DNA of 47,508 bases. Origin: a virus. Positions 1,422 to 32,749 of the stretch are shown in pieces. The first letter of the stretch is position 1; every line of letters starts with the position of its first letter. The stretch lies in IMG/VR virus record IMGVR_UViG_3300028048_000198, positions 1 through 47,508 of that record; one strand, 5' to 3'. The notes under the pieces were generated by a model. It did no database searches. It saw only the letters and a program-made list of their open reading frames with translations, and was not told where the DNA came from. A program made the position numbers and the translations under genes.

Positions 1422-1727
1422 ATGAACATTTATTTAGATTATTTATTAAAGAACTTTGGTGGAGCACATTTAGCAGGAGCTAAAATTGCTGCTGAGCTTA
1501 TTGAAAAATATGATATTACTGATATAAATAATGCATACCATAAATATGCAGATGATCATAATGATAAATATGCTAATGTAGAAAGAGCTATTAGACACTA
1601 TATTAGTGTAATTGGAACTATGAGAGATGTTGAAAAAATTCTAGGGTGTAAATGTTTTAATAATAGAAACTTTACAAATAAAGAATTTCTAGCAATAGTT
1701 AAAATAAGAGCTGAGGAGGTAAAATAG
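1422..1727 (+). CDS. Stand-alone Spo0A C-terminal (effector, DNA-binding) domain homologue without receiver domain
   Basis: YANVERAIRHYISVIG matches Spo0A ASRVERAIRHAIEVAW. NFTNKEFLAIVKIRAEE matches KPTNSEFIAMVADKLRLE. GGAHLAGAKIAAELI matches GVPAHIKGYLYLREAI. SD aaggag lies 8 nt upstream. Confidence 0.75.
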   Translation: MNIYLDYLLKNFGGAHLAGAKIAAELIEKYDITDINNAYHKYADDHNDKYANVERAIRHYISVIGTMRDVEKILGCKCFNNRNFTNKEFLAIVKIRAEEVK

Positions 1728-4187: not shown

Positions 4188-4469
4188 ATGAAAAATAGAT
4201 TTGATTTTATCAAAGAAAGTAAAGATATAGTAAGAAATTATGCTTATAAACATTTAGATGTGACTGATAATATAGAAAAGCAAGATTTTGATGTATATGT
4301 AGTTTGGTATGCTTATGAACTAGGAAATCAAAAAGCAATGATAAGCACCTCATTACTTGATGGAATGTACTATGAAGTTACATACAATATAAATAAAAAT
4401 GAAATATATCTTGATGCATACAAGAAGTTTGAGAATAAAGTTATAAATTTAAAGAAAGAAGGAGAATGA
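4188..4469 (+). CDS. Hypothetical protein (93 aa)
   Basis: SD gaaggagag 5 nt upstream. Confidence 0.65.
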   Translation: MKNRFDFIKESKDIVRNYAYKHLDVTDNIEKQDFDVYVVWYAYELGNQKAMISTSLLDGMYYEVTYNINKNEIYLDAYKKFENKVINLKKEGE

Positions 4470-12207: not shown

Positions 12208-14820
12208 CTAAGCACTTTCAGCATTACCTAAATCTTCACAGTATGCTGTAATTTTTAGCCATCTATCTCCAACTTGACCTTTTCTCCATAGTTTTATAGG
12301 CATTACAGCACCAGTAGAATTATTAACGACTGTATCACAAACAATCTGTCTATAATGTGTTCCTGTCTCTGTAACATCTACTGTCACTTGCCAATCTGTG
12401 GTATCAGTATCTCCTTTTGTAATTTTAATAGATCTATCACCAGCACTATTGCTTTCAAATGAAGCAACAACTACTATTCTAAACATACCATTTTTATTTA
12501 GATTAAAGCCTATCAACTGATTGTTATCGTTTTTAAGACCTCTGACAGTCTCTCCATGTCTATAAATACCTTCTAATATCATATTTTCATAGGTTGTTCC
12601 AACAGGGTTATTTAACGAATTATTGTTAATTCTCATAAACATTTTACCCTCTTGGTATTCAACTCCATAAATGACATTAAGCAAATCTTTTCTTATTTGT
12701 TTATTTAATAACTGTTTCTGTTTAGATATTTCACCATATATATCGGCTCTTTCAGCATTAACAGTTTCTTTTTTTACATTAAAATTTACAGTTATTTTTC
12801 TATCTGTCGTACCATTGTCATCAATATTTCTATTAACCTTGTTTTCTTTAATATTTAAAGAAGCAGAGCCTCCACCATCTCCACGCCATGCTCTTACACA
12901 GCCTTTAGATTGCATAATAGCTAAGGCTTGTTCATTAGTTAAACCTGCATTATTATCTGTTCTACCGTCACAAGCAAGTATTATAATATCTCCATTTTCT
13001 TTTATACCGAAATCCATACGAGGACTTTCAGTTGTCCAATTAGGAACATCAGTGTGTTCTTCTAGTTCTCCATTATTCATGTACCTATAAAATACTAAAA
13101 ATGCATTTTTTACACCTGCATCTAACATTTGTTGTGCAGTTGTTTGATTTGCTTGAAATTCTAATAATTGTCTATCTTCTGTAAAACCTATATACACATT
13201 ATCATCTCTATATGTTATATCATTAGGAGCTTGGTTCAATATTTGTCCGTTTCCTATAACAATACCTTGTTTCCAAGTACCACCCTCATTTTGATAGGTT
13301 AAACCTGCATTTGTAGTTAATGTAGTTTTATTAGATATAGCGTATTCATTAGGTGTTTTATTGTCATCTTTATCAACATAAACATTTATCTGATTATTAC
13401 CATTATCGTATTTAGGGATGGTTGCTATATAACAATCTGTATGGTCATGTCTTTCTTCTACATAAGTTATTTCATCATAATAATTGCTATTATTAATCTG
13501 ATCACTTAACTCATATTTTGTGTTATATATTATGTCATTTGTTTCTTCTTTTGAATAAAAATCTCTATTAGTAATTGCGTATACCATATCTAAAGTAGGT
13601 AAAGCATTTGAACTTGTAATTTCAAAATTTGTTTCTTCGTTGTATAACAATATATTTCTTATAGCATTTAATTGATTTAATAAGGTGATATTAGTTATTT
13701 CTTCAATTACTGGTTCTTTTAAAACACAATACACAGTAACATTATTATTAGAAAGCCATGTTTTAAAATCAGCTAATACTGTATGAGTACCATCATAAAT
13801 ATATAACCCACTAACATCTGGATTTCTATAAGAAATACCTACAACATTATTCCATGTGTTTGTAGCACTAACTGCTTTAAAATGACTAGAAAGTATTGCA
13901 CTTACTGTAGAAGTTCCTGTTGTGTCTAAAATATTGCTAAGACCTATTTGAAAACGTTTACCATTTGAAGAATTTGTAATTTGCCAATTTTCTGTACCAT
14001 TAAAAATAAATTTTTTAATCTTTTTATATTTAAACCATTTATTGTTTTGGTAGTATATATAATCTTTATAAGTTCCTACCTTACAAAGTTCTATATCTCC
14101 TAGTGATAACAAAAATGTATTAGATAAGGTGTTGTCAGCATTTTTAATAGTTAAATTAACATCTCCCTTAACAACATACACGCTAACTGGATTAGTAGGA
14201 GATGGCGTAGTGGCTTGGCTAGAATTACCAAATATTTTATTTACTCTACTATAACCAGTTGTATTTTCTAGTTGTGTTTCGTTTTGTACCGTTCCTGTAT
14301 TGGTCATTTGTAAATTGTTTTCAGATAGAAAATCACTATCATTTTGTAAGTCGCTTATCTTTGTAGGAATATCATTAATATTAGCTTTTGCAGATAATGC
14401 TTCTTCTAAATCAGGAGTTATTTCTTCTATTACGTTACTAGCAGTATCACTAACGATTTGTTGTTGGTCTGCTTCAGTCCAATAGTCTACTCCCCTAACA
14501 GGAGCACTATATCCTGCAAATAGTGCATCCATATAGGCTTTTGCTTGTTGAGATGAAGGTATTTTGTTATCATCAGATTGTAGTTCTTCATCAATATATC
14601 TAGAAAGAGTTGCTCCATCTAATTTCTTAGCATTTCCAACAATTTTTCCACCATTTAATAATCTTTGAATATCGTAATAGTTTTCATTAATAGCAGTTTT
14701 TAATATACCTAACATCTGATTAATATCAGTATGCTGGTAAGTCTGACCATCTTTATAAGTAGGGTTTAAGTCTGTTTCACCTATTCTATTATATAGTTCA
14801 TTTTCTTCCATAATATTCAC
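12208..14820 (-). CDS. Tail fibre/spike (870 aa) with an internal phosphodiester-glycosidase (NAGPA/DUF2233-like) domain
   Basis: Fibre-type N-terminus (LNGGKIVGNAKKLDGA, ISDLQNDSDF). ILACDGRTDNNAGLTNEQALAIMQSKGCVRAWRGDGGGSASL matches the DGR...G.t..e.a......G...A.nLDGGGS signature. Confidence 0.7.
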   Translation of the reverse strand: MNIMEENELYNRIGETDLNPTYKDGQTYQHTDINQMLGILKTAINENYYDIQRLLNGGKIVGNAKKLDGATLSRYIDEELQSDDNKIPSSQQAKAYMDALFAGYSAPVRGVDYWTEADQQQIVSDTASNVIEEITPDLEEALSAKANINDIPTKISDLQNDSDFLSENNLQMTNTGTVQNETQLENTTGYSRVNKIFGNSSQATTPSPTNPVSVYVVKGDVNLTIKNADNTLSNTFLLSLGDIELCKVGTYKDYIYYQNNKWFKYKKIKKFIFNGTENWQITNSSNGKRFQIGLSNILDTTGTSTVSAILSSHFKAVSATNTWNNVVGISYRNPDVSGLYIYDGTHTVLADFKTWLSNNNVTVYCVLKEPVIEEITNITLLNQLNAIRNILLYNEETNFEITSSNALPTLDMVYAITNRDFYSKEETNDIIYNTKYELSDQINNSNYYDEITYVEERHDHTDCYIATIPKYDNGNNQINVYVDKDDNKTPNEYAISNKTTLTTNAGLTYQNEGGTWKQGIVIGNGQILNQAPNDITYRDDNVYIGFTEDRQLLEFQANQTTAQQMLDAGVKNAFLVFYRYMNNGELEEHTDVPNWTTESPRMDFGIKENGDIIILACDGRTDNNAGLTNEQALAIMQSKGCVRAWRGDGGGSASLNIKENKVNRNIDDNGTTDRKITVNFNVKKETVNAERADIYGEISKQKQLLNKQIRKDLLNVIYGVEYQEGKMFMRINNNSLNNPVGTTYENMILEGIYRHGETVRGLKNDNNQLIGFNLNKNGMFRIVVVASFESNSAGDRSIKITKGDTDTTDWQVTVDVTETGTHYRQIVCDTVVNNSTGAVMPIKLWRKGQVGDRWLKITAYCEDLGNAESA

Positions 14821-30130: not shown

Positions 30131-30161
30131 AAAAAAGAGGTAAAGTCCTAACTTTACACTC
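30131..30161 (-). terminator. Terminator/attenuator directly after the HTH regulator gene
   Basis: Minus strand gag(t)gtaaag-ttaggac-ctttacctc followed by ttttttatt; overlaps the stop codon. Confidence 0.6.
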
Positions 30162-32437: not shown

Positions 32438-32749
32438 ATGAAAGTAGAACAATTTTTAAATAGAAATCAATTCCATTTATATGGAGAATTTAATGGAGAA
32501 GTACATCATGTTTTGCAAAGTTATGATAGTAAAGTGGTAGAAATAATTAACAAAGACGGTTATCAATTAGTAACATTAGGTAGAGATTGGGATTATTCGA
32601 CAACAACAGCAAAACACGTTTATGCTTTCTTAAAAGAATACTTAGACTATGGTTTTCAGTTTAGACCAGATAAGGTTAAAAATAAAAGAAAATACGTTCA
32701 AAGTTTAATAGACGACCATACTTTTGGTTATGATAAAGATATGTATTAG
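32438..32749 (+). CDS. Hypothetical early protein (103 aa; SYDS.V...DYSTTTAKHV motif)
   Basis: SD taggaggag. Confidence 0.65.
   Translation: MKVEQFLNRNQFHLYGEFNGEVHHVLQSYDSKVVEIINKDGYQLVTLGRDWDYSTTTAKHVYAFLKEYLDYGFQFRPDKVKNKRKYVQSLIDDHTFGYDKDMY

Follow-up and report, generated by a model that had tools for sequence, protein, structure and literature searches.

A virus genome of 47,508 nucleotides (IMG/VR record IMGVR_UViG_3300028048_000198, positions 1 to 47,508; this whole stretch is called the window below) encodes a 101-residue protein that is a genuine Spo0A_C-domain protein without a receiver domain. The preliminary description of this DNA had interpreted the product as a stand-alone copy of the effector domain of the sporulation regulator Spo0A. 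The core of that interpretation, a receiver-less Spo0A effector homologue on a phage with its recognition residues kept, stands, whereas the implied origin from a truncated spo0A gene is not supported. The protein is a new and fairly divergent addition to a class that has been described before: Schwartz et al. (mBio, 2023) reported spo0A homologues without a receiver in viromes and drew the same inference (PMC10294663). In the mechanism that we consider most likely, and hold tentatively, the protein would bind 0A-like sites in host DNA independently of phosphorylation.

Fold and Sequence Motifs of the Effector Domain

The Pfam Spo0A_C profile (PF08769), a search that had been proposed as a check, matches the protein at 32.4 bits against a gathering cut-off of 25 (E 9.4e-8). 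The HMM alignment spans residues 34−93 only (profile positions 37−100 of 104), but the claimed likeness to the effector domain along the whole length is borne out by profile and structure comparisons. Alignment of the family profile with the B. subtilis effector domain by hhalign covers residues 14−99 (E 7e-7, 35% identity) and pairs GAHLxG of the family with PAHIKG of Spo0A at the junction of helices A and B. In the B. subtilis sequence used here, the residues for 1LQ1 chain positions 51−110 were confirmed by alignment; the N-terminal helix A/B motif was confirmed in P0049, a relative with both a receiver and a Spo0A_C domain, and in tandem-domain proteins. An AlphaFold2 model made with 14 family members as input has six helices (pLDDT 91, pTM 0.82). 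A structural comparison of this kind had likewise been suggested, and a Foldseek search of the PDB returned as its five best matches entries 1FC3 and 1LQ1, both of the Spo0A effector domain, with TMq of up to 0.75 and alignments of 111 columns of the 119-residue chain; the next PDB match has a TM of 0.34. Taken together, the hhalign result, the model, and the Foldseek alignments indicate that the 101-residue protein begins at helix A of the effector domain.

The motifs that had been singled out in the product, VERAIRH and a helix of the TN.EFIA type, are both present. Nearest the N terminus, FGGAHLAG (residues 12−19; 1455−1478, + strand) lies at the helix A/B junction and resembles IGVPAHIKG of Spo0A, with G13 and G19 invariant in the family. 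The helix-turn-helix occupies residues 32−64 (1515−1613, + strand), where model helices 32−45 and 50−64 correspond to helices C and D of Spo0A; the assignment draws on the secondary structure of the model and on the alignments to 1FC3 and 1LQ1. These alignments also locate VERAIRH, the Spo0A signature of the recognition helix, at residues 53−59 (1578−1598, + strand), and the longer stretch NVERAIRHYIS at residues 52−62 matches (S)RVERAIRHAIE of Spo0A. V53−H59 correspond to V212−H218 of B. subtilis Spo0A in the 1LQ1 alignment, against which alone the B. subtilis numbering was checked for internal consistency. Residues E213, R214, and R217 of this stretch are reported, for the 1LQ1 structure, to be the base-reading residues of the recognition helix. 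In the family, E54, R55, and R58 are invariant and H59 occurs in 12 of the 14 sequences. Across the whole stand-alone class, R55 is invariant, R58 and Y60 are conserved in at least 90%, and the consensus reads VERxIRxYI; what Spo0A and the stand-alone clade have in common is mainly this recognition helix. The last helix starts with TNKEFLA (residues 85−91; 1674−1694, + strand), the counterpart of TNSEFIA in Spo0A.

The six-helix fold, VERAIRH, TN.EF(I/L)A, and G..AH(I/L).G are thus common to the phage protein and the Spo0A effector domain (1FC3, 1LQ1; PF08769), whereas the phage protein has neither receiver nor linker, a helix B−C connection about 5 residues shorter, Y60 for A219, CKC for YTV, and replacements at the sigma-A-activating positions. 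The CKC motif (residues 76−78; 1647−1655, + strand) sits in the helix E−F loop, where it replaces Y238-T239-V240 of Spo0A and is invariant in the subfamily. It is limited to the nearest clade, as Spo0A and the other stand-alone relatives have Tyr-x-Val/Phe there, and it could serve core packing or form a disulfide or an inter-subunit metal site. In helix E of Spo0A, the sigma-A-activating positions are, from B. subtilis genetics, G227, S231, S233, F236, and V240. The window residues aligned to them are G65 (variable in the family), D69, E71, L74, and C78. Judged from these aligned residues, the replaced sigma-A surface would lower the claim to a Spo0A-like activator but not the claim to Spo0A-like DNA binding.

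The helix E surface and the E−F loop nevertheless include five residues, E71, L74, C76, K77, and C78, that are invariant in the family, which suggests a contact surface distinct from the DNA-reading helix. A protein decoy could make use of such a surface with no need for DNA, by titrating a partner of the Spo0A effector domain such as sigma-A region 4, sigma-H, or the inhibitory face of the receiver. We give this idea little probability: the recognition helix is the most conserved feature throughout the class, which argues that DNA binding was selected, and the helix E residues differ from the Spo0A ones, so that mimicry of the sigma-A contact is not evident.

Gene and Genome Context

The open reading frame is present at 1422−1727 on the + strand as claimed, with an ATG start and 101 codons followed by a stop codon that is included in these coordinates. 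An AAGGAG Shine-Dalgarno sequence, read directly from the DNA, lies at 1407−1412 (+ strand), 9 nt before the ATG. The stop codon of the upstream ORF (TAA, 1419−1421) abuts this ATG and is in frame with it, so an N-terminal extension of the protein is impossible; at the other end, the next gene begins at 1728, immediately past the stop codon. Pfam scanning of about 50 ORFs of the window found no Response_reg domain in any of them, and the ORF upstream of the Spo0A_C gene has no Pfam match. Both the claimed absence of a receiver and the claimed start of the protein at the start of the effector domain agree with these results.

The gene is under purifying selection, with dN/dS values of 0.42, 0.16, and 0.14 against three homologues. 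Thirteen full-length homologues of 101−106 residues share 51−95% identity with the window protein; when all 14 sequences are aligned, 28 columns are invariant. Contigs that carry relatives measure 47,828, 47,738, and 47,134 bp, and the nearest relatives of the protein are found on phage contigs of 41−50 kb assembled from the guts of ruminants and other animals. A small ORF in an AT-rich genome, where spurious ORFs are common, might be taken for a chance reading frame or a nonfunctional fragment. The dN/dS values, the homologues, the invariant columns, and the confident fold refute this, the good ribosome-binding site and the translational coupling speak against it as well, and we put its probability at practically nil.

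The phage genome has a GC content of 29% and an exact direct repeat of 127 bp at the two ends of the window (1−127 = 47382−47508), from which the window is read as a complete genome of about 47,381 bp. The duplicated 127 bp could be a genuine terminal repeat, or they could stem from an assembly overlap at the ends of a circular or circularly permuted genome. On the − strand, from 5.2 to 30.5 kb, lie genes for terminase, portal, major head protein, large tail-type proteins, a holin-like protein, and an M15 endolysin. On the + strand, the region that runs from 31.7 kb across the genome end to 5.15 kb encodes helicase, primase, DNA polymerase A, a resolvase-like endonuclease, and a RecE-like exonuclease. 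This gene content and the terminal repeat leave the claim that the protein is phage-encoded on firm ground. No integrase or repressor was found in the genome, so the phage is apparently virulent. The Spo0A_C gene is located between the DNA polymerase A and resolvase genes within the long co-directional + strand unit. At the head of this unit stand three tandem early promoters of sigma-A type (30970−31324, + strand; TTGACA/T, 17 nt, TGnTAnnAT), formed by a unit of about 82 nt that occurs three times, each near consensus and with an A-rich upstream tract. At its other end, at the convergent junction, a strong hairpin terminator (5140−5167) closes the early/replication unit that includes the Spo0A_C gene. 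The signal for a local promoter directly before this gene was not above that of shuffled sequences. By megablast, the window has no DNA similarity to cultured phages. A tblastn search with the protein found one unannotated human-faecal phage (E 1e-3), and a search of PHROGs gave only weak matches to families of unknown function.

Distance from Spo0A and the Stand-Alone Clade

A profile search run exhaustively against 1.84 billion representative proteins returned 53 relatives, mostly stand-alone and about 100−130 residues long. Pfam finds a Spo0A_C domain in 52 of the 54 sequences (the window protein and its relatives) and a receiver in only 1. This receiver-bearing protein, P0049, ranks 37th with an E-value of 6e-5, whereas the stand-alone relatives have E-values from 5e-21 to 1e-9. 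The window protein itself is 25−35% identical to Spo0A effector domains, and with the TIGR02875 Spo0A equivalog profile it scores 20.5 bits, well short of the cut-off of 200. One receiver among 53 relatives and the low rank of this canonical protein indicate an old, diversified stand-alone clade and not a recent truncation of a host spo0A gene; the single receiver and the low TIGR02875 score speak against the implied truncated origin. We caution that the label "truncated spo0A" overstates the closeness of the window protein to Spo0A. A 632-residue "relative" from the search, P0060, was rejected as a low-complexity false positive.

Some members of the clade show variations on the domain. A protein 89−93% identical to that of the window (P0004, at 6001−6321 of the related contig L001) has five residues duplicated in tandem (HNEKY-HNEKY) where the helix-turn-helix makes its turn. 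P0043 (283 residues), P0028 (416 residues), P0055 (315 residues), and P0065 (378 residues) contain two or three tandem Spo0A_C domains and are receiver-less; as covalent "dimers" or "trimers", they might do without phosphorylation-driven dimerization. These arrays came from the same profile search and consist of the same domain, but their linked repeats are much closer to canonical Spo0A (e.g., SRVERNIRHAIEVGF), and the window protein has a single domain.

The stand-alone proteins might also be old phage-borne early regulators in their own right, never truncated from host genes and at work in nonsporulating hosts as well; in the CKC subfamily, the CxC loop might then provide a redox- or metal-dependent dimerization switch in place of the phospho-receiver. 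We consider this reading improbable. If it were true, the Spo0A_C fold would be decoupled from sporulation, and mobile elements would be a possible reservoir or source of the Spo0A effector domain.

0A Boxes and Possible Site of Action

In the mechanism that we favor, the Spo0A_C protein would be expressed as part of the long early/replication unit of the phage, whose 47.4-kb genome appears to be that of a virulent virus, and would bind 0A-box-like sites (TGNCGAA) without phosphorylation. It would thereby occupy operators of host Spo0A~P and override the Spo0A-controlled stationary-phase and sporulation decision during infection. Binding to 0A-box-like sites is predicted as most likely because the phage protein retains, in its recognition helix, the residues with which Spo0A reads bases. 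DNA specificity may still have drifted from that of Spo0A, given the 25−35% identity, the failure to reach the TIGR02875 cut-off, and the changes of A219 to Y60 and E221 to S62 in the recognition helix.

A scan of the phage genome for TGNCGAA, which the preliminary description had suggested, gave little sign of a phage regulon: a single box was found against 3.07 expected, in a coding region at 32596−32602, and this count is weak evidence because only about 3 perfect boxes are expected at 29% GC. Sites with one mismatch number 85, against about 110 in block shuffles. No 0A-like site with G2, C4, and G5 intact occurs in the control region from 30.5 to 31.7 kb, and no 0A box overlaps the three early promoters. 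The idea of 0A boxes as a self-regulon of the phage was rejected on the box count and on their absence from the promoters. The heptamer TGTCAAC, which follows the −10 element of two early promoters, was considered as a variant operator and also rejected; it occurs at chance level genome-wide and is part of the repeated promoter unit.

With the phage genome essentially without 0A sites, the targets would most likely lie in the host chromosome. Early transcription comes from host sigma-A-type promoters, which fits a factor acting on promoters of the host RNA polymerase. Since the sigma-A-activating positions are replaced in the family, simple occupancy, by repression or competition, is the safer guess, and the net effect on sporulation could be either a block or a forced onset.

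The protein might instead regulate the early or middle transcription, or the replication, of the phage itself, as an ordinary helix-turn-helix protein that reads a diverged phage motif and has no link to sporulation. We regard this as possible though unlikely. In each of the backbones seen, the gene does lie in the early/replication operon with other small early genes around it, and few other candidates for such a role are available: among the about 50 scanned ORFs, no other sporulation-type or regulatory genes were found, and the only other regulator candidates in the window are a weak HTH at 30154−30465 and the HTH of an HNH endonuclease ORF. Against this reading, apart from the promoters themselves no repeated operator-like motif was found in the control region, with TGTCAAC at chance level as noted. 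The size of the stand-alone phage clade with its one receiver in 53 relatives, the remoteness of the window protein from true Spo0A, and a host that might not sporulate would all suit regulation of the phage, but the base-contacting residues are those of Spo0A, and sporulation-gene homologues are enriched, at the level of the class, in phages of spore-forming hosts (PMC10294663). The gene is also common to otherwise unrelated backbones with a shared lysin, which suggests selection by the host.

The comparison of backbones bears directly on this last point. In the unrelated backbones L003, L030, and L034, a module of SNF2, AAA_24, DUF669, and D5-type primase genes replaces the DNA polymerase A module, and the Spo0A_C-like homologues of L003 and L034, 61−64% identical, lie within this unrelated replication module. 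L034 (a 25.8-kb contig from SRR16020811) has both a 74−81%-identical endolysin gene and a 61%-identical Spo0A_C-like gene, at 530−1270 and 5004−5318; otherwise its helicase and one endonuclease match those of the window weakly, and little else is common. This pattern suggests that host-linked genes were exchanged between phages of one host. Because the Spo0A_C gene co-occurs with the lysin, and lysins track host cell walls, the gene appears to be kept for the host and not for the promoters of one phage. The missing 0A regulon and the recurrence in unrelated backbones favor a host-directed role.

In phage early regions, Spo0A_C genes have other transcription-factor genes for neighbors. In the siphovirus-type L030, a gene for a 171-residue phage sigma-70-family factor (Sigma70_r2 plus r4) precedes the Spo0A_C-like gene by about 1 kb (6546−7061 and 8001−8318). 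L031 is a temperate element that encodes a large serine recombinase, and in it a 98-residue Spo0A_C gene is found near an AbrB/MazE-fold gene (5783−6079 and 6423−6650).

A host-directed role could also concern DNA replication. Spo0A~P binds 0A boxes at oriC in B. subtilis and at the origins of phi29, and a phage protein that bound 0A boxes at the host origin would stop chromosome initiation as a takeover factor. The phage has its own polymerase, primase, and helicase and would be immune for want of 0A boxes, and the gene lies in the replication/recombination module, between the DNA polymerase A gene and those for the resolvase and the RecE-like exonuclease. In phi29 and Nf, host Spo0A reads 0A boxes of the phage; in phi29, this represses early promoters and blocks both replication initiation and transcription (PMC2731898). 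The two cases are the reverse of each other in that phi29 carries sites and uses the Spo0A of the host, whereas the window phage carries the protein and lacks sites. We think an origin block quite improbable, as the argument from the replication module is purely positional and other backbones place the gene beside different modules. Occupancy of Spo0A~P operators in the host chromosome is still the reading that we prefer.

Host Considerations

Several lines of evidence point to the host, which is probably a low-GC gut member of the Bacillota. Relatives of the endolysin, full-length and C-terminal, occur in metagenome-assembled genomes (MAGs) from the guts of ruminants, rabbits, and humans that are labelled uncultured Bacilli, Clostridia, Clostridium sp., Erysipelotrichaceae, and, in three cases, Muribaculaceae; all of their loci are 25−32% GC, close to the 29% of the phage. 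At only 38% identity, TerL is closest to the terminases of podoviruses that infect Paenibacillus larvae, a spore-former; among cultured phages, these are the nearest by this gene. The early promoters of the phage are of the extended −10 type, which is common in Bacillota.

The closest endolysin relative, 78% identical, belongs to the phage-sized locus L008 (JAGCCP010000026.1, 43,262 bp; protein MBO7611028.1). This contig is binned in a MAG of Candidatus Ruminimicrobiellum bubulum from yak omasum, a member of the nonsporulating phylum Elusimicrobiota, and it shares only the lysin with the window phage. Either the binning may be an artefact or this lysin type may not be confined to Bacillota hosts. 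No Spo0A_C genes were found in the lysin-sharing loci L008−L028. Among 185,579 species-representative (GTDB) genomes, no relatives of the Spo0A_C gene were found either, as would be expected if only virulent phages carried it. We caution against taking the host of the phage to be an endospore former, as the preliminary description had proposed.

Relation to Known Systems

Schwartz et al. published 29 receiver-less sequences, and the CKC subfamily is possibly among them (PMC10294663). The window protein resembles that class in consisting of the effector domain only, with no receiver, on viral genomes from gut metagenomes. The best viral structural matches of the model are "truncated spo0A" entries of this class (TMq 0.55−0.74, prob 0.99−1.00), but the window protein is only 15−22% identical to them, and its subfamily of 14 has a CKC motif of its own. 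UniProt annotation already names such proteins in uncultured phages, and a survey of gut mobile elements found PF08769 enriched on those of Firmicutes. In the literature, we found no experimental test, of binding or of phenotype, for any phage stand-alone Spo0A_C protein.

Removal of the receiver from Spo0A itself offers a laboratory parallel. Work by Ireton and colleagues in 1993, cited in PMC10294663, reportedly found Spo0A of the sad67 type, with its receiver removed, to be constitutive. Even when unphosphorylated, the isolated DNA-binding domain binds its genuine targets, and its specificity rests on contacts to G2, C4, and G5 of TGTCGAA (PMC3485338). These proteins are laboratory truncations of the host's own regulator, whereas the window protein belongs to a natural and long-diverged phage lineage. 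Other phage systems likewise target the sporulation decision through different proteins: work cited in PMC10294663 has phage sigma factors like sigF and sigG lowering spore yield, and YqaH of the skin prophage and phage Rap-Phr systems are reported to act on the Spo0A pathway as well.

If phosphorylation-independent Spo0A domains made by phages do occupy host 0A boxes, phages could switch sporulation on or off in gut Bacillota. The persistence and transmission of spore-formers would then be affected, as would the survival of phages inside spores. To the described class, the present analysis adds a complete, apparently virulent genome of 47.4 kb with a well-folded, short (101 residues), and easily expressed member, together with evidence that the Spo0A_C gene follows the host rather than the phage backbone.

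Additional Features of the Genome

The DNA polymerase A gene of the window phage is split across the terminal repeat on the + strand (45330−46730, 46947−47465, and 142−951). One part comprises the exonuclease and the N-terminal polymerase (466 residues) and the other the C-terminal polymerase (269 residues, with a TTG start), and a 172-residue HNH_3 endonuclease ORF separates them; in the relative L001, DNA polymerase A is intact as one gene of 733 codons. The split looks like a homing-endonuclease insertion, either intron-borne or free-standing. At 4466−4924 (+ strand), a 152-residue protein that is conserved in L001 matches PF21825 (crAss001_48-related, or "Sequestin"; E 1.6e-22). In the structural module, at 12208−14820 (− strand), an 870-residue protein contains an NAGPA phosphodiester-glycosidase domain (E 3.4e-15). 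A role as a depolymerase on the tail, directed at phosphodiester-linked wall glycopolymers, is possible and would fit an envelope of Gram-positive type.
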